A DNA stretch of 34,619 bases from an uncultured Gemmatimonadota bacterium (GCA_964584035.1 CAZOYL010000010.1:1-34619), one strand, 5' to 3'. Shown: positions 1,295 to 33,323, numbered from the stretch's first letter. Notes: generated by a model not told the origin, from the sequence alone. Numbers and translations: made by a program.

Positions 1295-3811
1295 ATGATC
1301 TTAAGGCCGCGTGAAACCAGGGACTGTAAACAGCCGGCGCTATGGGCCGCCGTTCTCTACGCCGGCGGTATCTGCCTGGGACGGGTGACCGATCCGTCTG
1401 TCGGGCTCATGGCCGCGGCCGTTTGTCTGCTGCTCGGTATTTCCATTTTAGTGGACCGCCGGCGGTTCTCCGCATTCGACCCCTCCCTTTTTCTGGGGCT
1501 GGCCCTGCTTTTGACGGCCAGCCTGCAATATGAAGTCCGGACCCGTCTGTTCCCGCGGCATCATATCGAGCATTATCTTGCCCGGGAACCGATGACGGCC
1601 AGACAGGTGATCGTCCGGGGCCGAATCATATCGGATCCCCAGGAGAAGAGAGCCGATGCCACCTGTGTGCTTCAGGCCGCCGCCATCGATACGGGACGTG
1701 GTGGCATGCCGGTCACGGGCAGGATTCTCGTTCGTATCAGGGATTTCCGGGGCGGATTCGAAGCCGGAACCCAGGTCTGTCTGAGCGGCCGGCTGCGGTC
1801 TCCGGGAGGCGTCCGGAATCCGGGCGACTTTAACTATCGGGAATACCTCCGGCGTCGGGACATCTGGGCCATACTGACCACCAATGCCGACGGTGGGGAA
1901 CCGGCCGCCCCGGGCTCGAGAGGCTGGCTTGGTTCCCTGGCGAGCCGGGCACGGCGGTATCTCGCCGCCACGATCGCCCGGATGCTGCCGGGATCGCCGC
2001 GCGCCCTGCTGATGGGCCTTCTCCTGGGTCAGCGGGGCGCTCTTCCCGATGAGATCACCGCCGCCTTTTCGGATGCCGGGGTGATCCACGTGCTGGCCGT
2101 ATCGGGCCTGCACGTAGGGCTCATCGTCGGTATTTTTTTCGCCCTTTTCTCCGTTCTGAGATGTCCCCAGCCGGCGGCCACTCTGCTCACGCTGACGCTG
2201 GCCTTTTTCTACATGGTGGTGGTGGATCTGCGACCATCGGTCGTTAGAGCCACCATCATGGCGGCCACCGTCATGGGGGGGCGCCTCCTGGAGCGCGATT
2301 CCGATCTCCTCAATACTATTCCCTTCGCCGGCCTGGTCATCCTCATCTGGAATCCGCGCCTGCTCTTCGAACTGGGTTTTCAGCTTTCTTTCGCGGCGAC
2401 CCTCTCGATCGTCTACCTGCGCGGGCGGCTGTTATCCATCTGCTGTCCCTTTCTGTCGGCGGCATCCCCCAAATGGCTGCGCTGGGCCGCCGCCGGGTTG
2501 ACCGTGTCTCTATCGGCGCAATTGGGGACGCTGCCCATCGTGGCCTACCATTTTCAGAAGATACCGGTGATCTCCCTGGTGGCCAATCTGGTGGTCGTCC
2601 CTCTGGTCGGCCTGGCCGTGGCTTTGGGATTTACCAGCGCGCTGCTGTTTCCCCTCAGCACCGCTCTGGCGGAACTCTATGCGGCCGCCAACTGGCTGGT
2701 GCTGGAGATACTCATCCATCTGGTCACCTGGGCCGCCGCTCTTCCGATGGCCTGTTTTCATGTGCCCCGGCCGGCGCCCTACTGGATCATGGTCTACTAC
2801 CTGTTCCTGATCCTGGGGGCCAACCTGAAGAGATCTCGAGCCGCCGCCAGGGCTTTTCTCCTGGGCCTGTTGATTCTGCTCAACCTGTTGATCTGGAGGG
2901 AAGCCTTACCGGCCGGCGGCCGGCTGAAAGTGGTTTTTTTCGATGTCGGGCAGGGCGACGCCGCCCTGGTTACTTTCCCCAACGGCCGCCACATGCTGGT
3001 GGACGGCGGGGAGCGAACCATGAGCAATGACTGCGGCCGGCGCATCCTCTGTCCCTATTTTCTCAGAAGCGGTATCCGGCGCCTGGATGTGGTCGTCCTG
3101 ACGCATGCCGACAACGATCATGTCGGCGGCTTGCCGGCTGTCCTGGAAACGATGCCCGTGGATCTGGTGGTGGAGCCCGGTGCCGAGCATCTGTCCGCCA
3201 CCTATCTGCGCTTTTTATCGCTGGCCGGCCGTTCCGATCGCCGCTATCGACGGGTCCGGGCCGGTGATCGCCTCCTGATCGACGATCGGGTGGCGGTCCG
3301 GGTGCTGCATCCCACCGTGAGGTTTGTCACCCCCGACGGGAAAGCGCCCTATGGTCTGAACAACGGCTCGGTGGTGCTGCGCCTGGAATATGGCCGGATC
3401 AGCCTGCTGCTGACCGGCGACATCGAACGGGAGGCCGAGGAAAGCCTGCTGAACGCCGGGCTGTTGGAGCCGGCCACCTGCCTGAAAGTGCCTCACCATG
3501 GTTCCATCTCCTCCAGCACGGAGCCCTTCCTGCAGGCCACGCGACCCCGGCTGGCCGTCTTCTCGGTGGGCCGCGAGAATCGCTTCGGACATCCGCACGA
3601 TGATGTTCTCGGCCGTTACGAGCGGCTGGGCATCTTCGTTTTCCGGACGGACCGGGGCGGGGCCGTTCTGCTGGAGACCGACGGGCGCGACCTGTGGGTG
3701 CGCTCGATGATCGACAGAGGGCCGATCCGGTTGAGGATCGAAGAAAACGATGCGGCGGCCGTCCGTTCATCAGACCGTCTTCTTCAGGCCGGCAGAGCAC
3801 TTTTTCCTTGA
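1295..3811 (+). CDS. comEC: DNA internalization competence protein ComEC/Rec2 (DUF4131 + competence + metallo-beta-lactamase domains)
   Basis: RNPGDFNY, HVLAVSGLHVG, GFQLSF, FDVGQGDA, THADNDHVGG, KVPHHGS, FGHPH motifs; start placed at ATG 1295 (uncertain, ORF open from 1220). Confidence 0.95.
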   Translation: MILRPRETRDCKQPALWAAVLYAGGICLGRVTDPSVGLMAAAVCLLLGISILVDRRRFSAFDPSLFLGLALLLTASLQYEVRTRLFPRHHIEHYLAREPMTARQVIVRGRIISDPQEKRADATCVLQAAAIDTGRGGMPVTGRILVRIRDFRGGFEAGTQVCLSGRLRSPGGVRNPGDFNYREYLRRRDIWAILTTNADGGEPAAPGSRGWLGSLASRARRYLAATIARMLPGSPRALLMGLLLGQRGALPDEITAAFSDAGVIHVLAVSGLHVGLIVGIFFALFSVLRCPQPAATLLTLTLAFFYMVVVDLRPSVVRATIMAATVMGGRLLERDSDLLNTIPFAGLVILIWNPRLLFELGFQLSFAATLSIVYLRGRLLSICCPFLSAASPKWLRWAAAGLTVSLSAQLGTLPIVAYHFQKIPVISLVANLVVVPLVGLAVALGFTSALLFPLSTALAELYAAANWLVLEILIHLVTWAAALPMACFHVPRPAPYWIMVYYLFLILGANLKRSRAAARAFLLGLLILLNLLIWREALPAGGRLKVVFFDVGQGDAALVTFPNGRHMLVDGGERTMSNDCGRRILCPYFLRSGIRRLDVVVLTHADNDHVGGLPAVLETMPVDLVVEPGAEHLSATYLRFLSLAGRSDRRYRRVRAGDRLLIDDRVAVRVLHPTVRFVTPDGKAPYGLNNGSVVLRLEYGRISLLLTGDIEREAEESLLNAGLLEPATCLKVPHHGSISSSTEPFLQATRPRLAVFSVGRENRFGHPHDDVLGRYERLGIFVFRTDRGGAVLLETDGRDLWVRSMIDRGPIRLRIEENDAAAVRSSDRLLQAGRALFP

Positions 3812-3836
3812 CTTGTCTGCCATCTGGGATTATTAA
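3808..3836 (+). promoter_or_regulatory. sigma70-type promoter for TPR gene
   Basis: TTGACT (3808-3813, overlapping comEC stop), 17 bp spacer, TATTAA (3831-3836); GGGAGG/GAGGT RBS downstream. Confidence 0.55.
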
Positions 3837-3877
3837 TTATAACAATAGGTTATATTTAAAAGGGAGGTAACGAGGTC

Positions 3878-4855
3878 ATGTCAAAGAGCCAATTCTACTG
3901 TGCCGCCATGCTGCTGATCGTGCTCTGTCTGCTCCCCGCCCTGGCTTTCGGGGACGAAGAGCAAAACCCGCAGGCGATCGAACATTATAACGCCGGGGTG
4001 GAATATACCAGACAGGGGGATTTTCAGAGCGCCGTGGAGGAGTACCTCAAATCGTTGGAGTTGGATCCGGAGAACGTGCAGATCCTCTATGGCCTGGGTT
4101 ATGCTTATCGGCAGCTGGACGATCTGGATCAGGCCATTGAGTACCTCAGCCGGGCCGTCGGCATCAATCCCAACTATATCGATGCCTATTATGAAATGGG
4201 ACTGGCCTACTGGAAAGCGAAGCAATACCAGGAGGCCATCGAACAGTTCACCAACGTCATCAATCGAGGACCAACCGGCGACAGCAAAATACCCAAGGCC
4301 TACTATTCTTTGGGCCGTCTGTACCTGCTTCAGGACGATCTGGAACAGGCCCTGATGGCGCTGCAGACCTCCGTGGCGTTCGATGCGGAATACGCGGAAG
4401 CGCATTACTATCTCGGGGAAGTGTATCGCCAGCAGAAGCAACTTTCCTCCGCCATCGAGGCCTATACAATGGCAGCCACCCTGGATAGCACCGATATGCA
4501 AACCTATTATAAATTGGGCATCGTCTACAAGGACGATGGGCAATACGAGCACGCCGTGTCGGCCTTCCAGAAGGTCATTCAATCCGGGACCAAATTCGCC
4601 ACCGACAGCCGCTACCGTTTAGGGTCGGTCTATAATGCCATGGGAAAGTATCAGGAAGCTATTGAGGTCTTGGGGGCGTATCTCGAACTCAAGCCTGGAG
4701 CCGCCAGCGCGCTCATGGCGCTGGGAGAGGCTCATGAGAATTTGGGCCAGTATGCGGAGGCCATCGAGGCCTATGGACAGGCAGCCAAGGACAGCCGCTG
4801 GGCCCAATATGCCAATTATAAGATCGATCAGTTACAGAAGTACATCGAGGAGTAA
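3878..4855 (+). CDS. Secreted tetratricopeptide repeat protein
   Basis: Signal-peptide-like N-terminus (...CLLPALAFG); about 8 tandem 34-aa repeats with YxxLG...A...Y/F..A pattern. Confidence 0.9.
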   Translation: MSKSQFYCAAMLLIVLCLLPALAFGDEEQNPQAIEHYNAGVEYTRQGDFQSAVEEYLKSLELDPENVQILYGLGYAYRQLDDLDQAIEYLSRAVGINPNYIDAYYEMGLAYWKAKQYQEAIEQFTNVINRGPTGDSKIPKAYYSLGRLYLLQDDLEQALMALQTSVAFDAEYAEAHYYLGEVYRQQKQLSSAIEAYTMAATLDSTDMQTYYKLGIVYKDDGQYEHAVSAFQKVIQSGTKFATDSRYRLGSVYNAMGKYQEAIEVLGAYLELKPGAASALMALGEAHENLGQYAEAIEAYGQAAKDSRWAQYANYKIDQLQKYIEE

Positions 4856-4910
4856 TTCACGGACCGGTATCTCGCCCTCCATGGTGTTCGGGGGCCTTTG
4901 ATGATCACAG

Positions 4911-4950
4911 AAACCGCAGGAATGGAGGCATCGATTTCTGCGGTTTTTTT
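4911..4950 (+). terminator. Intrinsic terminator after TPR gene
   Basis: AAACCGCAGG...TCTGCGGTTT stem with T7 tail. Confidence 0.7.
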
Positions 4951-4982
4951 ATTGAAACGGGGAAAAGAGAGGGGAAATCTCG

Positions 4983-5852
4983 ATGGCACCCGGCCAAGGA
5001 CGTGCTGAACGCATCCAAATGTTGATCGCCCGATATGGACCGGGCCGGGCGGCTGCCGGCCGGCAATTTGGGCCTCTGAGCCTATCTCTGGCCGTTCTCT
5101 TCCTGATGGCCTGTGCCCATGCCCCTTCGTTCGATCCGGGCGGCGGACCGGCCAGAGGCCCCCGGGAGGTCGTCGAGCGAATCAATCGGAACGCGCTGCT
5201 GGTCGAAAGCCTTCGGGCCGATGTCCGGTTGCAATCGAATCACATTCCCCAGAGCAGATTGTCCCGGGCCGATCTCCTGTTCGCCCGTCCCGACCGCTAT
5301 CGGGTGCGGCTTCGGACGGTCTTCGGATCGACGGTGGCCGTATTGATCCTCTGTCAGGGTCAGGCCGATCTCTATCTTCCCGCGTCCAACCGCCTGTATC
5401 AGGGATTCCTGACGGTCGAACAGGTCAAGGGGCTGGTGGGCATTGAGTTGCCGGCCGTCGACTTGCTGGAAGCCCTGTCCGGCATGCCCACGCTGCCTCC
5501 CGTCACGGAGCTGCTGGAGTACCGTCGCATTCAGGAAGATCACCTCCTGATTTTTCCCTGGGAACAGGGGCGTCGTGAGGTTATGGTGGCACCGGATGGA
5601 TACCGGATTCTCCGCGATCAATACCGCGATGCTGCTGGACAAGTGGTTGTGGAAAAGCAGTTTGATGAGCATCGCCTGGTCGCGGGCGTGGTTCTCCCGG
5701 AACGGGTTCGGGTTCTCCTCCCCGGTCGCGGTGATGCCCTGGAAGTCCAGTTTTCCCACCAGGATGTGAATGTGTCATGGGAGCAGGAAGATTTCCAGCT
5801 GGACCTTCCCGGCAGCGTTGAGCGGATTCGATTGGATCTGGAATACCGTTGA
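4983..5852 (+). CDS. Putative lipoprotein, DUF4292 / LolA-LolB-like fold
   Basis: Lipobox-like LAVLFLMA-C; beta-rich body with RPDRYRVRL and LPERVRV segments; start uncertain (4983 or 5019). Confidence 0.65.
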   Translation: MAPGQGRAERIQMLIARYGPGRAAAGRQFGPLSLSLAVLFLMACAHAPSFDPGGGPARGPREVVERINRNALLVESLRADVRLQSNHIPQSRLSRADLLFARPDRYRVRLRTVFGSTVAVLILCQGQADLYLPASNRLYQGFLTVEQVKGLVGIELPAVDLLEALSGMPTLPPVTELLEYRRIQEDHLLIFPWEQGRREVMVAPDGYRILRDQYRDAAGQVVVEKQFDEHRLVAGVVLPERVRVLLPGRGDALEVQFSHQDVNVSWEQEDFQLDLPGSVERIRLDLEYR

Positions 5853-16892: not shown

Positions 16893-18641
16893 TTACCCGG
16901 TGGGAGGGGTCAGCGGCGAAGAGAACCAATCGAGTTGAATATGAGAGAAAATCTTGTCCCTTGCCTGGCATTCCCCCAGAAAGGTCCATTCACCGGGATC
17001 GACCCATTCGCCCCGGCCGTAACGCCCGGCCATGTCGGCCAGGCGATTGAAGATCTGATGGTGCTCGACCAAACGTAGTTCGGCATAATCCCGGGCCGAC
17101 CAGGTGCTGATCAGGAATTGCCAGTCGGAAGCCTCCAGCAGCAGCAGTTCGCGGGCCATCTGTTTGAGGATACTCTCAAGCTGTTCATCCGGATGTTTCC
17201 CCAGCTCTGCCAGCAGCGATGCGAAGCGGGCCTCGTCCTCATAGATATGTTTCCAGGTCCATTCGGTCCACTCATTTAGCCAGATATAGTGGTAGCCTCC
17301 CTGTCCCCAGGATCCTTCCGGCAGGGAAACGATTTCCGTCGGTGCCGCCTCGTCCAGATAATCGCCGCAGGTGGTCAGTTCGACCTCCTCATCCTGGTCC
17401 AGCAGGTCGAGGACCTTTCTCAGCCATTGGGGTCCTTCGAACCACCAGTGGCCGAAGAGCTCGGCGTCGAATGGCGCACAGACGATCCCCCGGCGGCCCG
17501 TCTGGCGATGGTATTCCCGAAGGCTGTCCTTCACCAGCTGGACGAAATGTTTGGCGTTCTCCGGAACTCGCCCGATGGCCCGGTCAGGATCATATTCCTC
17601 TTTTTCCGCCAGGTCGCTTCCCGGGCCGGTGACCCGCCAGTAACGGTGCCCCCCCGGATAGTGCTTCTTGTGGAAGTCAAGATACCATCCATCGCCAGGA
17701 TAGCCCCACTGACTGCTCCATACCTGCAGGCCGGTTTCCGCATCGCGCGTGAAAACAGCCACGGGTGAGCGGCTTTCCGTGGTGCCGCTGCCTACCAGGT
17801 AGATCTCCCGGGGCGTTCTCTCCTTTTCCTCGGGCCGTTCCTGATATTGGCTGGCGAACTGTTGCCATAAGCGGCGCAGGGATTCAAAACGATCGATATA
17901 GACGCCGATCGACTTGCCTCCCTTCAGCAGGGCAGAGTCCACGATAAAATATTCCAGACCGTTTTCAGCCAGGATCTGTTCGATGCCCCGCCGGGGGAAT
18001 TCTTCCGGGAGCACCGTGGTTTTCACCGGAGGGGACCATCGATACCCGGGCCGGTAAGCGCACTCCGGGAGCCAGATCCCCCGGGGCCGCTTTCCGAAGT
18101 GGCGGCGGTACGTTTCCACACCGACTCGAATCTGAAAGCCGACATTTTCATCGGTGCCCAGCAGTGGCAGATAACCGTGAGTGGCCGCGCAGGTGATGAT
18201 CTCCAGATGATGCTCATCCTGAAGTTTTTTAAAGGCGCCTATCAGATCCCGATGGTAACGGTTTTGGAAACTCTCCCGGATTCCGGCGTAATGATCGCGC
18301 CACCGGATGGCCAGATCAGCCAGTGAGGCGCGGTCCCACTGGCTGAAGGTGCGATGATCTTCTTCTGCGGCGTCGATCTTCTCGGTGAGATAGTGCTCGA
18401 ATTCCTCCTTGAAATCATCGTCCGCCAGCTGCTCACAGAGCACCGGCGTAAGCCCCAGCGTGAGCCGGGGCGAGCGGCCTTCCGCCAGCAGATCATTCAG
18501 CACGTTGAGCAGGGGAATATAGGTTTCGGCGGTGGCCTCGTTGAGCCAATCCATTCCGTGTGGCCAGCGGCCGTGGGCCATCACGTAAGGCAAGTGTGCG
18601 TGAAGGACGATGGTGAAACGGCCAATGAAATTTTTTTTCAT
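16893..18641 (-). CDS. GH57 1,4-alpha-glucan branching enzyme (DUF1957 C-terminus)
   Basis: HAHLPYV, ETYIPLL, THGYLPLL, GIWLPECAY (nucleophile Glu), FDAELFGHWWFEG (acid/base Asp), ELLLLEASDW; GGAGAGG RBS. Confidence 0.95.
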   Translation of the reverse strand: MKKNFIGRFTIVLHAHLPYVMAHGRWPHGMDWLNEATAETYIPLLNVLNDLLAEGRSPRLTLGLTPVLCEQLADDDFKEEFEHYLTEKIDAAEEDHRTFSQWDRASLADLAIRWRDHYAGIRESFQNRYHRDLIGAFKKLQDEHHLEIITCAATHGYLPLLGTDENVGFQIRVGVETYRRHFGKRPRGIWLPECAYRPGYRWSPPVKTTVLPEEFPRRGIEQILAENGLEYFIVDSALLKGGKSIGVYIDRFESLRRLWQQFASQYQERPEEKERTPREIYLVGSGTTESRSPVAVFTRDAETGLQVWSSQWGYPGDGWYLDFHKKHYPGGHRYWRVTGPGSDLAEKEEYDPDRAIGRVPENAKHFVQLVKDSLREYHRQTGRRGIVCAPFDAELFGHWWFEGPQWLRKVLDLLDQDEEVELTTCGDYLDEAAPTEIVSLPEGSWGQGGYHYIWLNEWTEWTWKHIYEDEARFASLLAELGKHPDEQLESILKQMARELLLLEASDWQFLISTWSARDYAELRLVEHHQIFNRLADMAGRYGRGEWVDPGEWTFLGECQARDKIFSHIQLDWFSSPLTPPTG

Positions 18642-18696
18642 GGTCACCTCTCCTGGGGCGATGCGCGAAAGGGAATGACATCATCAATGAGAATAG

Positions 18697-18729
18697 AAAA
18701 AAACAGGGCTGATGGACGGTATCAGCCCT
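18697..18729 (-). terminator. Intrinsic terminator-like hairpin between NucS-like gene and GH57 gene
   Basis: Minus strand AGGGCTGAT-accgtcc-ATCAGCCCT perfect 9-bp stem, then G and T7. Confidence 0.7.
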
Positions 18730-18758
18730 TCCCTGTTCAGTGGAGAAAAGCCGGTCTC

Positions 18759-19337
18759 TCACAGATCGAAAGAGGATTCCATCTTCATGAATGAGGCGAT
18801 TTCCTCTTCGCCCAGTGGGATCATCGTCGATGGCAGGGAGATATCCTGCTCCAGCTGTTCCCCCGAGGATTCTTTATGCGTTGAGGAATTGGCATACTCG
18901 ATGAGCAGGCCGTTCTCATTATCAGACTGAAGCAGGCGAAGCCTGAACAGATCCACCGGGAGGTTTTCCAGGGCGGCCACGGCATCCTGGAAACAAGCGG
19001 AGAAATCCGGAGCCACCAGGATCAATCGGGGATGAACGAACAGATCCCTGGCCCTTTCTCCCAGCAGGGGCAGCATCTGATGCCGATACTGGTGGAACCA
19101 TCGCAGGTGTGATAGGCCTTCCACCAGCAGGTCATCCCGGGCCTGGGGAGCCACATCGATGATCACCGGCCGGCCGGTGGCGTCCACGCCCAGCAAATCC
19201 ATCGGCCCCCATTTTCCACGCCCTTTGCCGGGGTCGACCACCCGCAGGCCCTTCTCCAGAGCCTGCGAATTTTCAGCCACCATCAGGGCCAGGCGGTCTC
19301 TATCTTCCAGCGGCTTGCTGTTGAATACCTTGGTCAC
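18759..19337 (-). CDS. Hypothetical protein with degenerate NucS-like PD-(D/E)XK fold
   Basis: ALEKGLRVV...GPMDLLGVDATGRPVIIDV...PRLILVAPDF resembles the NucS C-terminal domain; GTG start in GTGA overlap with upstream stop. Confidence 0.65.
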   Translation of the reverse strand: MTKVFNSKPLEDRDRLALMVAENSQALEKGLRVVDPGKGRGKWGPMDLLGVDATGRPVIIDVAPQARDDLLVEGLSHLRWFHQYRHQMLPLLGERARDLFVHPRLILVAPDFSACFQDAVAALENLPVDLFRLRLLQSDNENGLLIEYANSSTHKESSGEQLEQDISLPSTMIPLGEEEIASFMKMESSFDL

Positions 19338-20281
19338 GTCGATGCCTCCAGAACCTGGCGGAGCGCTTGAAAAAAAGAGCGGTCCGTCTCTTCTCGAGCC
19401 CGCGGCTGTACCCATAACTTCTCTGCGATCTGTGAGAGACACTGAGCGGCCCTGGAGCTGGCGCGAGTCAGGGAGAGAGGCGTGCGCCGCAGAATGGATT
19501 TCTCGATGTTGACATCGGCAAGCAGGTAGCCCAGGTTGACGACCGTCACATTTAAGAATTCGTTCAGTGCGCGGGTCATCTGCTTGAAGATAGATTGAGC
19601 TTCCGATATCATCCGAACCTGATAGACGACGATGCCCAGCGTGATGTCCGGCCTGGTCGACAGGATGTTCTTGATGACGGCATAGGCATCCATCATTCCC
19701 AGGGGATCAGAGGGGACCATGACGACGATCTGGTGGGCCAGCCCGTGAATCAGACGGGCGTTCTCATGCACGGAGGCCGGCGTGTTTACCAGTATCATAT
19801 GGGCATCGGTCTCCAGTGATGTCAGCCCCGCCCAAATCCTTTCCCGGGCCGTCTCGGGAAGTTCCCTAAGATGACGAAGATCGATGTCCAGAGAGAGAAG
19901 TTTGACGCCCAGGGGTCCTTCGAGAATGACCTGTGGCTGTTGCCCGTTCTCTTCCTCGGCCAGGCGCGCCAGAGAATCGCCCGGCCGGCGGCCCCACAGG
20001 AAGGCTTGATCCGGAAAGCTGGAATCGGCATCCACGATCCTGATCCGTCGCCTGCGGCGGGAAAGTTCCACGGCCAAATTGCTGACCAGAAAAGATTTTT
20101 CCAGACAGCGGTGATCTCCTGTCACCGCCACAACGCGGGGAAACGGTTTGTCACTCTGGGAAGCATGCGGATTCTTCGGGGAATCCTCCTCCGGCTGTGA
20201 TGGCGGGGACGACTCCTCGGCCGACAGGAACAGGTGAGAGATGTCTTCCAATCCTTTTGCCAATCTTTTGTGATCTTTCAA
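19334..20281 (-). CDS. FlhG/MinD-like protein with degenerate P-loop
   Basis: VVAVTG...KSFLVSNLA, IVDAD, DAYAVIK, LGYLLAD features of FlhG/MinD; Walker A reads GDHRCLEKS; C-terminal SFFQALRQVL helix; TTG start. Confidence 0.8.
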   Translation of the reverse strand: MKDHKRLAKGLEDISHLFLSAEESSPPSQPEEDSPKNPHASQSDKPFPRVVAVTGDHRCLEKSFLVSNLAVELSRRRRRIRIVDADSSFPDQAFLWGRRPGDSLARLAEEENGQQPQVILEGPLGVKLLSLDIDLRHLRELPETARERIWAGLTSLETDAHMILVNTPASVHENARLIHGLAHQIVVMVPSDPLGMMDAYAVIKNILSTRPDITLGIVVYQVRMISEAQSIFKQMTRALNEFLNVTVVNLGYLLADVNIEKSILRRTPLSLTRASSRAAQCLSQIAEKLWVQPRAREETDRSFFQALRQVLEAST

Positions 20282-20297
20282 TTTAGTATGACTCTTT

Positions 20298-21386
20298 CTA
20301 TTGTTGGATCTCGACTATGGAGTTCTTGACCCCGTAGGGGGTGTCGACCGTGTGAGGATTGTGCGGATCCTCCATCCACTGGCCATCGACGATGAAGCGG
20401 TACTGGTACCTGCCCGGTTCCAGGGGCAATACAGCGGACCAGATGCCGTTGCCGTCGGGATCCAGATGAGCGGCCTCATCGGGCTGCCAGTCGTTGAAAT
20501 CACCGGCCACTCGAACCTGGCCGGCATCAGGAGCCAGCAGCCGCAGGTGGAGACCCTGTTCGGTAAAACAAGGCCCCAGAGGTTTGGCCATCGCTGAGGC
20601 TGGCCGGACCTGATATTGCCGATCCTGAGACTCTTCCAAAACTTCCTGAGCCAGGGCGGCATGGTCGCGATAACCGGCGCAGTGCCGGTCGTACTGGCAG
20701 ATGGGCTGGCCGAAACCGGTGGCCTCTCTGAGGCGGACATTGATCCCGATGGTGGTTCGAAACAGCCCCTTGCCAAAGTGGCGGCTCAACTCCTCGAGCA
20801 CCTCTGTGGCAATCTTGGTGCGGCGATCGAATATGGTCGCTGCCACCCGGACGTGTTTTCGCTGGCCGTAACGGTCGGCGATGAGTTTGATCGTCTCGCT
20901 GAGCTTGGCCAGCCCGTGCAGGGCAAAAAAACTCGTTTCGACCGGTACGATGATCTCCCGGCAGGCCCTGAGGGCGTTGAAGGTCAGCAGACCCAGACTC
21001 GGCGGGCAATCTACGATGACATAGTCATAGTCACGGGACAACTGCGCCAGGGCGATCAGCAGCCGGTCTTCCCGCCCGGGATGCCCGGCCAGCTCCTGTT
21101 CCACGGCGGCCAGCATGAGCCCGGAGGGGGCCAGATCCAGGCGCGGCCCCAGGCCCACGAGAATATCCTTCAAATCGGTGTCGGGGTGGTTCTCCGAGAG
21201 GACATGATAGAGGCCCCGGTCGACCTCGTCGGGTTGAACACCAACGCCCAGAGAAGCATGTCCCTGAGGGTCCAGGTCGATCAGGAGAACGCTCTGGTCC
21301 TTCTCGGCCAAACAGGCCGATAGATTGATGGCCGTGACCGTTTTTCCACAGCCGCCCTTCTGGTTGATGACCGCGATGGTTCTCAT
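20298..21386 (-). CDS. Soj/ParA-family ATPase fused to C-terminal CBM48 (AMPK-beta-like glycogen-binding) domain
   Basis: NQKGGCGKT, DLDPQG, IVDCPPSLG; residues about 278-362 carry VAGDFNDW...GIW...PGRYQYRFIVDGQW..DP.N...YGVKNS; AGGAGAGG RBS. Confidence 0.93.
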   Translation of the reverse strand: MRTIAVINQKGGCGKTVTAINLSACLAEKDQSVLLIDLDPQGHASLGVGVQPDEVDRGLYHVLSENHPDTDLKDILVGLGPRLDLAPSGLMLAAVEQELAGHPGREDRLLIALAQLSRDYDYVIVDCPPSLGLLTFNALRACREIIVPVETSFFALHGLAKLSETIKLIADRYGQRKHVRVAATIFDRRTKIATEVLEELSRHFGKGLFRTTIGINVRLREATGFGQPICQYDRHCAGYRDHAALAQEVLEESQDRQYQVRPASAMAKPLGPCFTEQGLHLRLLAPDAGQVRVAGDFNDWQPDEAAHLDPDGNGIWSAVLPLEPGRYQYRFIVDGQWMEDPHNPHTVDTPYGVKNSIVEIQQ

Positions 21387-21448
21387 GGTTCCTCTCCTGT
21401 GATCCGGATGATGCCGAGGAACCTGCTTTTGATCAAGGGGTTATCTCT

Positions 21449-21778
21449 CTATTCCCGTGGTTCCCCGGGACGTCCGGTCTGAAAACCGATCTCCGATCCT
21501 GGCTGCCCCTGTATCTTGATCTTTCCAAAGCGGTCTTCGAATTTCTCCAGGTTCTGCTCCAGAGCATTGCAGAGCATCTTGGCGTTCTGAGGCGTCATGA
21601 CGATACGGGCATAGACCTTTGTTTTCTTGATACCCGGCATAACCCGGGCAAAATCGATGAAAAATTCCGATGGCGAGTGGGCGATCAGGGCCAGATTGGA
21701 GTAAATCCCTTCCGATTCCTTCTCTCCCAGCTCTACCGAGATCTGATGGGGTCTTTTCTCCGGCATTTTTTTCTCCAT
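21449..21778 (-). CDS. DUF3467 family protein
   Basis: EGIYSNLALIAHSPSEFFIDF...ARIVMTPQNAKML...FE.RFG.I signature. Confidence 0.85.
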   Translation of the reverse strand: MEKKMPEKRPHQISVELGEKESEGIYSNLALIAHSPSEFFIDFARVMPGIKKTKVYARIVMTPQNAKMLCNALEQNLEKFEDRFGKIKIQGQPGSEIGFQTGRPGEPRE

Positions 21779-21814
21779 AGGTATGCCACCCTGTATGTTG
21801 TGCTGGCCGCTCGT

Positions 21815-21843
21815 AAAGTACATTCATTTTGTGGAAAAGTCAA
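21815..21843 (-). promoter_or_regulatory. sigma70-type promoter for the DUF3467 / ParA-CBM48 cluster
   Basis: Minus strand TTGACT, 17 bp spacer, TACTTT. Confidence 0.65.
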
Positions 21844-26234: not shown

Positions 26235-26957
26235 ATGCGGGTTGCCGTACTGTCGGACATTCACAGCAATCTCGAGGCACTGGAATCCGTTCTGGAAGAT
26301 ATCGTCGGCCAGGGGGTCGATGATCTCCTCTGTCTGGGCGATCTGGTCGGATACGGCGCCAATCCGAATGAATGCGTCGAACGGATCAGAGGTCTGATCT
26401 CGCATGTGGTGGCCGGAAATCATGACCACGCCGCGGTGGGCAAAACGGATGCTTCCTATTTCAATCCTCATGCCAAACGGGCCGTGGCCTGGACGGCGCA
26501 GAACCTGACTGCGGATCATGCCCGGTACATCTCCACATTGCCCTACGTGAAACAGGTTGAGCATCTTTTACTGGTCCATGCCTCCCCGTCGGACCCGGCT
26601 GCTTGGAATTACCTGCTCTCTCCTCAGATGGCCCGGGCCGAGTTCCAGGCCTTTTCGGAATCGATCTGTTTCATCGGGCACTCCCATCAGCCGCTGTTCT
26701 TCTCGATCAACGGGGCACCCCGCTCTCTGAAGGGCGACCGGCTGTCCTGCGACCCAGGGGAGAGGTACATCGTCAATGTCGGCAGTGTCGGCCAGCCGCG
26801 CGATGGAGATCCCAGATCCTGCTATGCCATCTATGATGATCGCCAGCGCACCGTTCAACTCCGCCGGGTGGCCTATGATATCAGAAGCGCGCAACGCAAG
26901 ATTCTACAGGCCGGACTTCCTCCCGTCCTGGCCGCCCGATTGAAGCGGGGGGAATGA
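26235..26957 (+). CDS. Calcineurin-like metallophosphoesterase
   Basis: SDIHSN, GDLVGYG, GNHD, GHSH, NVGSVGQPRDGD. Confidence 0.92.
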   Translation: MRVAVLSDIHSNLEALESVLEDIVGQGVDDLLCLGDLVGYGANPNECVERIRGLISHVVAGNHDHAAVGKTDASYFNPHAKRAVAWTAQNLTADHARYISTLPYVKQVEHLLLVHASPSDPAAWNYLLSPQMARAEFQAFSESICFIGHSHQPLFFSINGAPRSLKGDRLSCDPGERYIVNVGSVGQPRDGDPRSCYAIYDDRQRTVQLRRVAYDIRSAQRKILQAGLPPVLAARLKRGE

Positions 26958-31644: not shown

Positions 31645-33323
31645 AGAAAAAGGCAGGGGCCACAGGGACCGGTAAACGACAGGCCGGTCGGCCAACGCAA
31701 CCCCGCAAAAGGAAACCTGTTCAGCAGGCACATGCTCCCGGAAGCAGGAGCGTACCCCTGCTGAAGAAATATTTCTGGTGGGCTCTCGTCGGCCTGATCG
31801 CTCTGGCCGCCATCGGCAGCGTGATGGTATTTAACCCGAGCCTGTCCACCAATGGCGATAATGCTCTCTACATCGTTTTGGCCATGTCCTGGGCCGAGGG
31901 AAAAGGTAACAGCACCATCTGTACCCCAGGAGAACCGGCCAACACGATGGTGCCGCCCGGGTATCCGCTACTGCTGGCCCCGCTGGTGGCCCTCTTTCCG
32001 GACCACTGGCTGCCCCTGAAATGGCTCTCGACGGTGCTGTTCATCCTGTCCATAGCGGCCATCCTGTTCATGATTCGGGAGCGGGGGGAGGATCTCCCGA
32101 TGGCCTTCGGCGTGGCCGCGCTGGCCGCCATGAACGTCAACCTCCTGATTTCGAGCAGCCTGGTGATGACCGAGATCCCCTTCCTGTTTTTTTCGATCCT
32201 TGGATTGGCCCTGGCCCAGCGTTCTCTCCGGCCCGGAGCGGACCTCACGACGCCAAGGGCAAAGGTGCTGTTCGCTCTGGCGGTACTGTCGCTGGTCGGC
32301 GCCTACCATATTCGGTCCATCGGTATCGTCCTGCCCGCGGCTCTGGTCATCTTCCTTCTGCTGACCAGACGCTACCGGCTGGCCCTGGTGGCCGGGGCGG
32401 CCATCCTGCTGCTATCGCTTCCCTGGGCGGTGCGCAATGCCACCGGTGGTGAGGGGGGCGGGTATGCGCAGCAGTTTATGCTGCGGAACGCCTATAATCC
32501 CGAGCTGGGGACGATCACAATCGTGGATCTGTGGCACCGGATCGTGGCCAATCTCAAGACCTATGGTGTTTTTGTAAGCACCCAGGCCGTATTCCCATCT
32601 CTCTCGCCATTGCTTGGCTCTCGAGGCCCGACCGGAACGCTGGCGCTGCTGGGCATTGTGGTCACGGCCGCCATCATGACGGGGTTCATCGTTCAGGTCA
32701 GAAGATCGTTGACCCTGTTGGAGATCTATGCCGCCTTCTTTCTCGGCGTCTGCATCCTGTGGCCGGAGATGTGGAGCGGGATGCGGTTTATCGTGCCGGT
32801 CATACCACTGGCCATCTATTACTTTCTCGCCGGCCTGCGGGCACTCATGACGGTCCTGGACGCCCGGCTGTTTCGCCGGGCCGGCCAGCTTTTCGCGGCC
32901 GCCGTCCTGATGGCCGTGCTGTTTTCATCGGCCAGGGGTATGGCCCAGGAGGCCGGCCGGGTCCATCGCTATCCCGCCCAATGGGAAAATTATTTCGCGG
33001 CCGCCCGGTGGTGCCGCCACCACACCGATCCGGGCAGCATCTTCCTGGCTCGAAAACCTTCCTTGTTCTATCTCCAAGCGCGACAGAAGGTTCTCAACTA
33101 TCCGTATACGGCCGACAGGGCCGAGATGATGGCCTTTCTGGCCGATCATGAGGTCGACTACGTGCTCGTCGATGGATTCACCTGGACGGGGACCACGCAG
33201 CGCTACCTCATACCGGCGATCGAGGCGCACCGGGATCGCTTTCAGCCGGTCTATCGGTTGGAGAATCCCGATACCTGGGTGTTGAAGATCCTGCCGTCCG
33301 CGGAACCGGGGGAGAGACCATGA
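31641..33323 (+). CDS. GT-C superfamily (ArnT/PMT_2-like) membrane glycosyltransferase
   Basis: GDNALY, PPGYPLLL, MTEIPF, IRSIG, RFIVP motifs; about 11 TMs plus soluble C-terminal domain. Confidence 0.78.
   Translation: MKKKAGATGTGKRQAGRPTQPRKRKPVQQAHAPGSRSVPLLKKYFWWALVGLIALAAIGSVMVFNPSLSTNGDNALYIVLAMSWAEGKGNSTICTPGEPANTMVPPGYPLLLAPLVALFPDHWLPLKWLSTVLFILSIAAILFMIRERGEDLPMAFGVAALAAMNVNLLISSSLVMTEIPFLFFSILGLALAQRSLRPGADLTTPRAKVLFALAVLSLVGAYHIRSIGIVLPAALVIFLLLTRRYRLALVAGAAILLLSLPWAVRNATGGEGGGYAQQFMLRNAYNPELGTITIVDLWHRIVANLKTYGVFVSTQAVFPSLSPLLGSRGPTGTLALLGIVVTAAIMTGFIVQVRRSLTLLEIYAAFFLGVCILWPEMWSGMRFIVPVIPLAIYYFLAGLRALMTVLDARLFRRAGQLFAAAVLMAVLFSSARGMAQEAGRVHRYPAQWENYFAAARWCRHHTDPGSIFLARKPSLFYLQARQKVLNYPYTADRAEMMAFLADHEVDYVLVDGFTWTGTTQRYLIPAIEAHRDRFQPVYRLENPDTWVLKILPSAEPGERP

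Follow-up and report, generated by a model that had tools for sequence, protein, structure and literature searches.

In the McdAB, PpfA, ParC and PomXYZ systems, a ParA-family ATPase distributes a non-DNA cytoplasmic cargo together with a small activator partner, and it is the adaptor, not the ATPase, that binds the cargo. The same idea may apply to the locus described here, which lies in a 34,619-nucleotide stretch of DNA (GCA_964584035.1, CAZOYL010000010.1:1-34619; hereafter the window) and is centered on a ParA ATPase fused to a glycogen-binding module of the CBM48 type, followed by two partner genes, g2 and g3. The locus belongs to a Zixibacteria genome. We suggest that it encodes a ParA-type system tethering or distributing glycogen granules, a reading that we prefer and hold at a strength just short of probable. 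It is built on the domain make-up of the proteins, the intact ATPase and sugar-site positions of the fusion, a conserved peptide on the partner, the joining of g2 and g3 into one protein in other lineages and a recurrent linkage to the gene of a GH57 branching enzyme.

Several described systems resemble single parts of the locus. Chromosomal ParABS has the same Soj-type ATPase with a deviant Walker A motif (43-46% identity); here, in contrast, the partner carries neither a ParB/Srx CTPase nor a helix-turn-helix (HTH) domain, no parS is found in the window, the ATPase itself carries the cargo module and the cargo would be a polysaccharide. The similarity to McdA is distant (6non, E 3.7e-10, residues 1-167). 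The nearest solved carbohydrate-binding module (CBM) is that of AMPK beta which, like other CBM48 tethers, is a non-catalytic module parking a nucleotide-regulated enzyme on glycogen, whereas the CBM48 of the window is fused to a bacterial ParA ATPase, with binding predicted from sequence.

The closest match is a preprint of 22 October 2026 describing ParA proteins with an AMPK1_CBM domain, placed in the ParA branch ConB5, in variants that have either a second, inactive ParA and an inactive restriction endonuclease (REase) fold or an upstream protein with a single transmembrane segment (bioRxiv 10.64898/2026.10.19.760177). The first variant has the architecture of the window and the second corresponds to what is called here the Omnitrophota type. 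The belief behind the first-pass annotation of the window, that nothing of this kind had been described, is thus out of date, since the portions of the preprint considered contain exactly this gene set and propose an immune role for it. The core-genome synteny, the presence in a majority of Omnitrophota genomes, the conserved CBM, the ParB-like peptide and the GH57 linkage reported below do not appear in the passages and term counts examined from that source. The conserved downstream peptide is new here, and so are the g2-g3 fusion in Phycisphaerae and the GH57 adjacency in three arrangements.

The ATPase fusion and its two partners

Open reading frame (ORF) and domain calls place five co-oriented genes on the minus strand across 21778..16893, in the order DUF3467, ParA-CBM48, g2, g3 and GH57. 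The features on which the argument turns are the following (window numbering; aa, amino acids; HMM, hidden Markov model; AF2, AlphaFold2):

20298..21386, minus strand: ParA-CBM48 fusion, 362 aa (AAA_31, E 2.9e-50; AMPK1_CBM, E 2e-13; CBM_48, E 1.4e-9)
20622..21386, minus strand: Soj-like ATPase domain of the fusion, residues 1-255 (deviant Walker A NQKGGCGKT; AAA_31, E 2.9e-50)
20301..20531, minus strand: CBM48 / AMPK-beta-type glycogen-binding module of the fusion, residues 286-362 (AMPK1_CBM, E 2e-13)
19334..20281, minus strand: g2, FlhG/MinD-fold pseudo-ATPase, 315 aa, TTG start (AF2 model and Foldseek)
20222..20281, minus strand: N-terminal peptide of g2, MKDHKRLAKGLEDISHLFLS, putative ParA-binding/activating motif (motif HMM, 28.9 bits)
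18759..19337, minus strand: g3, protein of the NucS/EndoMS fold (PD-(D/E)XK) without the catalytic lysine, 192 aa, GTG start (Foldseek)
16893..18647, minus strand: GH57 alpha-1,4-glucan branching enzyme, 584 aa (Glyco_hydro_57, E 1.2e-36; BE_C, E 1.8e-20)

Direct reading of the sequence gives a spacing of 16 bp between ParA-CBM48 and g2 (20297..20282) and a GTGA overlap of the g3 start with the g2 stop (19337..19334). For comparison, 80 loci around relatives of the fusion were fetched from named public genomes, all of them metagenome bins, of Planctomycetota, Omnitrophota, Myxococcota, Thermodesulfobacteriota, Eisenbacteria, Rokubacteria, Gemmatimonadota, Acidobacteriota, Margulisbacteria, Nitrospirota and other phyla.

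Judged from their sequences, both domains of ParA-CBM48 look functional. The nearest solved relatives of the ATPase domain are chromosomal ParA/Soj proteins (8ray, E 3.4e-53; 1wcv, E 3.3e-44; 6iub, E 1.8e-40; approximately residues 2-251), and its deviant Walker A motif, at residues 8-16, includes the signature lysine. When 16 fusions of several phyla are aligned (46-81% identity), residues K10, G11, G12, G14, K15, T16, D37, D39, D126 and R189 are invariant. The last of these lies in a D-R-R-T stretch, at the place where Thermus Soj has the arginine of its D-x-R-T motif, taken here to be the DNA-binding arginine of Soj; the predicted nucleoid binding of ParA-CBM48 rests on this one aligned arginine. 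The C-terminal module scores well over the curated cut-offs (AMPK1_CBM, 50.8 vs 26.8 bits; CBM_48, 38.6 vs 22.4 bits) and aligns with the CBM chains of AMPK beta1/beta2 (2f15 and 1z0m, E of about 7e-9). W300, R330, W337 and N355 are aligned with W, K, W and N, in that order, in the AMPK beta motifs FNNW / YKF / DGQW / NN, which presumably are sugar contacts. Moreover, W300, W316, Y327, Y329, D334, G335, W337, G352 and S356 are invariant in all 16 fusions.

The g2 product gives only sub-threshold domain signals (CbiA, E 0.0056 and 17.1 bits against a cut-off of 25.4; NCBIfam minD_arch, 41 vs 202 bits). In its AF2 model (predicted local distance difference test, pLDDT, 79), residues 1-44 are disordered and a helix occupies residues 303-313. 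The core superposes best on FlhG (4rz2; Foldseek E 1.1e-18; template-modelling score, TM-score, 0.71 on the query and 0.86 on the target), followed by FleN and MinD. FlhG has an N-terminal activator-type peptide and a C-terminal helix, and g2, which has the fold of FlhG/FleN/MinD, likewise ends in a helix and begins with a disordered peptide of the activator type; unlike these proteins, it has lost the Walker A motif and lies in no flagellar or division context. In fact, the Walker A position of g2 reads GDHRCLEKS instead of GKGGVGK[ST], which suits the earlier designation of pseudo-FlhG. This ruined motif is common to the g2 proteins of Zixibacteria and Nitrospirota, and the motif is near-intact in some other lineages, as in L017 (SGKGVRGKT). 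Searches of Pfam and NCBIfam returned no ParB/Srx or HTH match for g2 or for g3. A membrane anchor had also been proposed for g2. The hydrophobic moment of the C-terminal helix is 0.81 in the window copy, and it ranges from 0.34 to 0.89 among homologues, where the helix is often acidic; since the helix is so inconsistently amphipathic, the anchor is not supported and no claim is made for it.

The sequence of g3 is matched weakly by the NCBIfam NucS model (E 2.6e-4, C-terminal half), and its AF2 model (pLDDT 78) retrieves 5gke and 2vld with Foldseek at a probability of 1.0 and E 2.6e-4 to 8e-4, the TM-scores of 0.39-0.45 being modest. What g3 shares with NucS/EndoMS is the C-terminal PD-(D/E)XK fold; the N-terminal DNA-binding domain is absent, and the E-x-K nuclease motif has become D-V-A. 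The position of this motif, assigned by eye in alignment A2, reads IIDVA (I-I-D-V-A or S), with no lysine and a variable acid, and the description of g3 as a pseudo-nuclease therefore stands. DNA binding by g3 was considered and dropped because the protein is acidic and so lends the idea no support. A conserved acidic tail, L-x-EEEIA-x-F, ends the free-standing g3 proteins (18759-18800 in the window) and is missing in two loci where the partner peptide is fused to g3 (L042 and L044); it may be a docking motif.

Fused in other genomes and encoded by overlapping genes, g2 and g3 appear to act as one unit. Profile searches found g2-like and g3-like domains in a single polypeptide in 10 Planctomycetota loci (L021, L024, L025, L028, L032, L049, L051, L058, L067 and L083), in a lineage that includes Phycisphaerae; in L083, the g2 part spans residues 84-303 and the g3 part residues 363-498. 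The peptide described in the next section is joined straight to a g3-like domain in L042, L044 and L053 (the genome of L053 is flagged as unpublished, and nothing is claimed from it alone). Furthermore, an exhaustive profile search recovered 1726 g3-like cluster representatives at E <= 0.001, of which 719 reach E <= 1e-10, and the peptide is present at the N-terminus of 54 of the best 150. A predicted complex of g2 (residues 45-315) with g3 scored 0.35, against 0.00 for the best of three controls, with at least 45% contact agreement between runs and a partner pLDDT of at least 67. This is weak support: of 157 solved complexes, 116 reached the mark used, as did 2 of 215 mismatched pairs, but only 18 of the 157 reached it with a score of 0.60 or less, and so did both of the passing mismatches.

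A peptide shared by very different partners

The gene directly downstream of ParA opens with the conserved motif [KR]xLGRGLxxISHLFLS in 35 of the 80 loci (motif HMM, at least 13 bits). Every hit lies on the ParA strand, just downstream, in carrier proteins that are 104-724 aa long and otherwise very different, and elsewhere in the 80 loci the motif HMM gave no hit of 10 bits or more. The model had been built from 34 of the loci, with L038, L063 and L065 as new detections. In a six-frame translation of the 2.9-Mb genome of the window, g2 is the only hit above 10 bits (28.9 bits, the next best being 9.7), and no client of the peptide other than g2 was found there with this model. Published work describes the ParA-binding motif as an unstructured N-terminus with aliphatic and positively charged residues, the peptide alone being sufficient (PMC12462528), and the g2 peptide is consistent with that description in the part of the source considered. 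By eye, the motif also has in common with the start of the genome's own ParB, MARKALGRGIGAII, the core K/R-x-L-G-R/K-G-L/I. In its sequence, the peptide resembles the ParA-binding tail of ParB, and a role of g2 as the source of an activator peptide is favored by a disordered N-terminus whose motif is conserved across phyla on very different partners.

Other carriers of the peptide include proteins with HTH_17 and RodZ_C (L068), an HTH domain (L090) or AAA_22 (L077). In L068:1614-2969 and L090:8077-8523, the peptide is joined to an HTH_17/MerR-like domain, in L068 with RodZ_C as well, and these proteins are DNA- or envelope-linked and not of the g2/g3 kind. The single-transmembrane protein found upstream of ParA-CBM48 in Omnitrophota begins with MDKKDIYEHLAKIYLDASS, which by eye is like a Phycisphaerae variant of the peptide, TLDALADLYLTG; the motif HMM is blank on this start, and the likeness is given as a lead only.

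Distribution, gene order and the link to glycogen genes

The fusion is not rare, being present in more than ten phyla, and 41 of the 80 loci have the peptide, g2 and/or g3, while a further 16 are of the Omnitrophota type with the upstream single-transmembrane protein; the loci without a recognized partner or without an adjacent GH57 gene are counted in the last section. In an even sample of Omnitrophota genomes, many of them of 1-2 Mb, 45 of 81 have the fusion, and more have a ParA match within a longer frame. The full-length fusion is found in five of six other genomes of the window's phylum. In the ParA tree, proteins group by phylum, with 16 label changes against a mean of 27.5 after shuffling (none of 200 shuffles was as low). 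ParA-CBM48 is a core-genome gene and is mostly inherited vertically.

Within the family of the window, the order RelA-GH57-g3-g2-ParA-DUF3467-RibD-RibE-RibBA is kept in three genera, and the triad of ParA-CBM48, g2 and g3 is present in the phylum's second family as well; this conservation is more than chance. Across the three genera, ParA-CBM is 62-65% identical, g2 54-57% and g3 47-49%, compared with 60-62% for RibD and 55-56% for RibE. Two Zixibacteria relatives (genomes G001 and G003) have a second ParA-CBM48 paralogue (L010 and L016; 62-65% identical), which has no peptide, g2 or g3 partner and is followed by a 622-aa ORF without a PADLOC match.

The neighbor genes of the 80 loci (545 ORFs) were clustered, and one representative each of 25 of the 26 clusters present in at least three loci was scanned with Pfam, together with 6 further ORFs; the remaining cluster, which is g2-like, was scanned separately. 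In loci of the Omnitrophota type (L041, L043, L050, L056, L066, L075, L088 and similar ones), a wider block is shared, consisting of an Alginate_exp-like porin, GH57, the single-transmembrane protein, ParA-CBM48, a 108-aa membrane protein, a protein of 130-146 aa whose N-terminus is rich in lysine and whose small C-terminal part is rich in beta structure, and DUF134. Four bins labelled Planctomycetales/Planctomycetia (L056, L066, L072 and L084) fall inside the Omnitrophota clade of the ParA tree, and L056, L066 and L084, not L072, have the gene order of that type; these bins may be mislabelled or their genes transferred. A ParA without CBM48 (279-334 aa) was found in L027, L033 and L015 (genome G013). 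It is followed in L027 and L033 by g2-like and g3-like genes with the same N-terminal peptide, a MerR-family gene lies upstream in L027, and the sole partner detected in L015 is a g2-like gene.

The link to glycogen genes seen in the window recurs. Its GH57 gene scores over the cut-offs of both Pfam families (Glyco_hydro_57, 126.9 bits; BE_C, 73.7 bits) and reaches 553 and 473 bits (E 7e-166) with the NCBIfam branching-enzyme equivalogs, under their cut-offs of 1000 and 920. A GH57 gene adjoins the triad in the Zixibacteria relatives L009, L013 and L014. Among the 80 loci, 10 of the Omnitrophota type have it on the same strand, 0.6-1.0 kb upstream, and L040 has it 2.2 kb downstream, which makes 11 loci in the 789 kb of flank covered; the cases represent three arrangements and should not be taken as eleven separate events. 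GH57 is present in 46 of 50 carrier genomes (those of the first 50 of the 80 loci). The genome of the window, which is 91.7% complete, has a GlgA-type synthase and six GH57 matches, and no PF00343 phosphorylase was found in it. Many more CBM48 modules occur in the same genome: contig C164 has three (approximately 1548-5129), one of them in a frame that continues into the N-terminus of a GH57 where the contig stops, and contig C6 has a tandem pair within a single frame of 860 aa (32522-33106).

Three further features concern the ends of the transcription unit:

21815..21843, minus strand: weak promoter-like hexamers, TTGACT-17 nt-TACTTT, upstream of DUF3467 (read by eye; the -10 matches 3/6)
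21449..21778, minus strand: DUF3467 gene (PF11950, E 7.8e-27; start set at MEKKM, the longer ORF beginning at 21823)
18695..18729, minus strand: intrinsic-terminator-like hairpin and T run between g3 and GH57 (9-bp stem at 18729..18705)

The co-orientation, the 16-bp gap, the GTGA overlap and the adjacent branching enzyme gene were all found where they had been reported. A single promoter for all five genes fared less well: the TTGACT-17-TACTTT match is weak and was not reported at 21843..21815 by a consensus promoter scan, and the strong terminator-like hairpin, which follows g3 by 30 nt with its 9-bp stem and T run, precedes GH57. The hairpin is nearly identical in L014, a relative of another genus: the stem reads AGGGCTGAT...ATCAGCCCT in the window (18705-18729) and AGGGTTGAT...ATCAGCCCT in L014 (5595-5619), with a changed loop. 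No such hairpin was seen in the region inspected after g3 in L009. Because of its position between g3 and GH57, the unit is more likely DUF3467-ParA-g2-g3, with GH57 as a conserved neighbor, than one operon of five genes; in other words, a layout of four genes plus one is more likely. DUF3467 precedes ParA-CBM48 in five of six loci from five genomes in two families of the phylum (L009 and L011-L014, at 69-83% identity; not the second copy, L010), and a tblastn search of the 80 loci from other phyla returned no match to it. As the association is confined to Zixibacteria, DUF3467 was dropped as a component of the system and is regarded as a neighbor.

Pfam scans of the 23 further ORFs of the window show otherwise housekeeping surroundings and no ParB domain: the locus is bordered by ComEC, lipopolysaccharide genes, O-antigen genes and RelA/SpoT at one end and by RibD-RibE-RibBA-RibH-NusB at the opposite end. 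A scan of the window for parS gave no parS-like site: the sole match has 3 mismatches, lies 5 kb off at 26539 and was equalled by 23 of 100 shuffled sequences, in line with chance. The reported lack of both elements in the window is thereby confirmed. A canonical rsmG-soj-parB operon lies on a separate contig of the same genome.

Possible functions of the locus

Glycogen binding, DNA binding, activation of the ATPase by the peptide and the positioning or segregation of granules are what we infer from these proteins, and they could be combined as follows. ParA-CBM48 would sit on glycogen through its own C-terminal CBM48 and, because the module is carried on the ATPase, a dimer with bound ATP would display two of them. 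If Soj is a guide, the ATP dimer would also attach to DNA non-specifically and thereby hold granules at the nucleoid. The g2 protein, without normal nucleotide binding, would bind the ParA dimer through its disordered, ParB-like N-terminal peptide and trigger ATP hydrolysis and release, and the dead NucS-fold domain of g3 would work with g2 as a single partner unit presenting the peptide. Repeated tethering and release could spread granules along the nucleoid or hold them there, with the result that both daughter cells would inherit stores, and the neighboring GH57 branching enzyme would make the polymer. More tentatively, we consider it possible that the family as a whole is an inverted ParA machine, in which the ATPase rides the cargo via CBM48 and grips the nucleoid only when ATP-bound, and in which the ParB-like peptide of lineage-specific partners (a dead FlhG with a dead nuclease, a single-pass membrane protein or an HTH-RodZ_C protein) would time or place the release.

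A number of observations weigh against the granule-tethering proposal. We know of no characterised ParA system with a cargo-binding module on the ATPase itself. The likeness of the peptide to ParB consists of a short core, recognized by eye, and of its position; the motif HMM misses the true ParB of the genome, and the likeness is accordingly limited. The g3 protein is acidic (pI 4.9; median 5.75 among 150 relatives), and residues 42-162 match the PADLOC candidate-defence model PDC-S18 (E 6.3e-11), a match that may go back to the nuclease fold as such or may point to a true connection with defence. The terminator-like hairpin sets g3 apart from GH57 in the window, 69 of the 80 loci have no GH57 adjacency and 10 of the 11 positives fall in one clade. 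No partner was recognized in 23 of the 80 loci, 19 of them labelled Planctomycetota and one cut at a contig end. In Nitrospirota (L027 and L033), the same g2/g3 partners accompany a ParA without CBM48, from which it follows that the partner module is not tied to glycogen and is older or broader than the glycogen link. The target of CBM48 could also be another alpha-glucan, such as maltodextrin, instead of storage granules. Lastly, the preprint, in the parts considered, places exactly this architecture within an immunity-associated branch of ParA (bioRxiv 10.64898/2026.10.19.760177). Overall, the interpretation given in the first-pass annotation is partly supported.

The alternative that survives best, although on balance we consider it unlikely, is a switch for glycogen status. 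ParA-CBM48 would read alpha-glucan and, through its ATP cycle and g2-g3, would regulate for instance glycogen enzymes, nucleoid organisation or division; or the granule would be a platform that holds the partner complex. The same domain evidence serves this alternative as serves granule tethering. The nearest folds of g2, FlhG and FleN, are regulators and not motors, the g2/g3 partners of Nitrospirota go with a ParA that has no CBM48, and the anchors of the partners differ by lineage (HTH_17 and RodZ_C in L068, AAA_22 in L077, a single transmembrane segment in Omnitrophota), as would suit a signalling adaptor. However, the system has no conserved output domain such as a kinase, a transcription factor or an enzyme, and GH57, set apart by the hairpin, may not be co-transcribed. 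Moreover, the whole Soj-type machinery has been kept, including the arginine aligned with the Thermus Soj D-x-R-T. Known Soj-type members use such machinery for spatial patterning.

An immune or conflict system, as put forward in the preprint, seems to us improbable. In that scheme, the CBM senses a carbohydrate of infection, ParA multimerises and blocks the invader, and the inactive ParA and REase are extra sensors; the available portions of the preprint argue for it from a sporadic distribution and a fast-evolving CBM (bioRxiv 10.64898/2026.10.19.760177). The signals could be phage glycans, wall fragments or glycogen depletion, and the same low probability attaches to them. The described ConB5 architecture and the PDC-S18 match of g3 favor this explanation, as does the great diversity of the partner proteins. 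In addition, a PADLOC scan of neighbor genes, covering 123 of the 545 ORFs and 18 of the 80 loci, found 5 of the 123 ORFs matching at E <= 1e-15, including SoFic, a type IIG restriction-modification enzyme and an SspH-like protein. Nevertheless, 14 of the 18 loci have no such neighbor, and ParA-CBM48, g2 and GH57 have no PADLOC match of their own. The distribution is not sporadic, either in Omnitrophota or in the phylum of the window, and the ParA tree groups by phylum; the locus is syntenic across genera in a core-genome context, where ParA-CBM and g2 diverge about as much as RibD and RibE do, and g3 more. Nor is the CBM fast-evolving in our sample, with a mean pairwise identity of 48% against 54% for the ATPase domain among the 16 fusions, a sample biased by having been drawn from the best hits to this query. 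On the whole, the ParA-CBM48 loci sampled do not behave like defence genes, which would be sporadic, fast-evolving and set in defence neighborhoods, the last point being judged from the 18 loci scanned. The GH57 linkage and the ParB-like peptide would also be left unexplained; the terms 'branching' and 'stimulat' are absent from the main text of the preprint. Given the core-genome location, the clustering by phylum and the scarcity of defence neighbors, a cellular role connected with alpha-glucan fits better than an immune one.

Last, an ordinary DNA-partition ParA, of the chromosome or of a mobile element, with an accessory CBM is very unlikely: the identity of the ATPase domain with chromosomal ParA/Soj and a partner with a ParB-like N-terminal peptide would agree with it, but g2 and g3 have no ParB/Srx or HTH domain, the window has no parS-like site, the genome has its separate canonical soj-parB operon, the locus is chromosomal and syntenic and not on a mobile element, and the CBM Pfam domain is present in all of the best 120 homologues listed.

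Literature searches brought up no work in which a ParA-type ATPase is connected with glycogen granules, the one text on this gene set being the preprint with its immune reading, and little has been established, to our knowledge, about how bacterial glycogen is placed and shared out. Should the immune explanation be the right one, the defence system would be unusually widespread and lodged in the core genome. If, instead, the granule-tethering proposal is true, the ParA/MinD family gains a carbohydrate cargo and a new kind of wiring, in which the ATPase itself holds the hook for the cargo and exchangeable partners supply the activator peptide. The fusion family has many members, and further partners could be sought with the conserved peptide as a handle. 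If the inverted ParA machine exists, it would be the first dedicated bacterial apparatus for the inheritance of a polysaccharide store, ancient and for the most part vertically transmitted.

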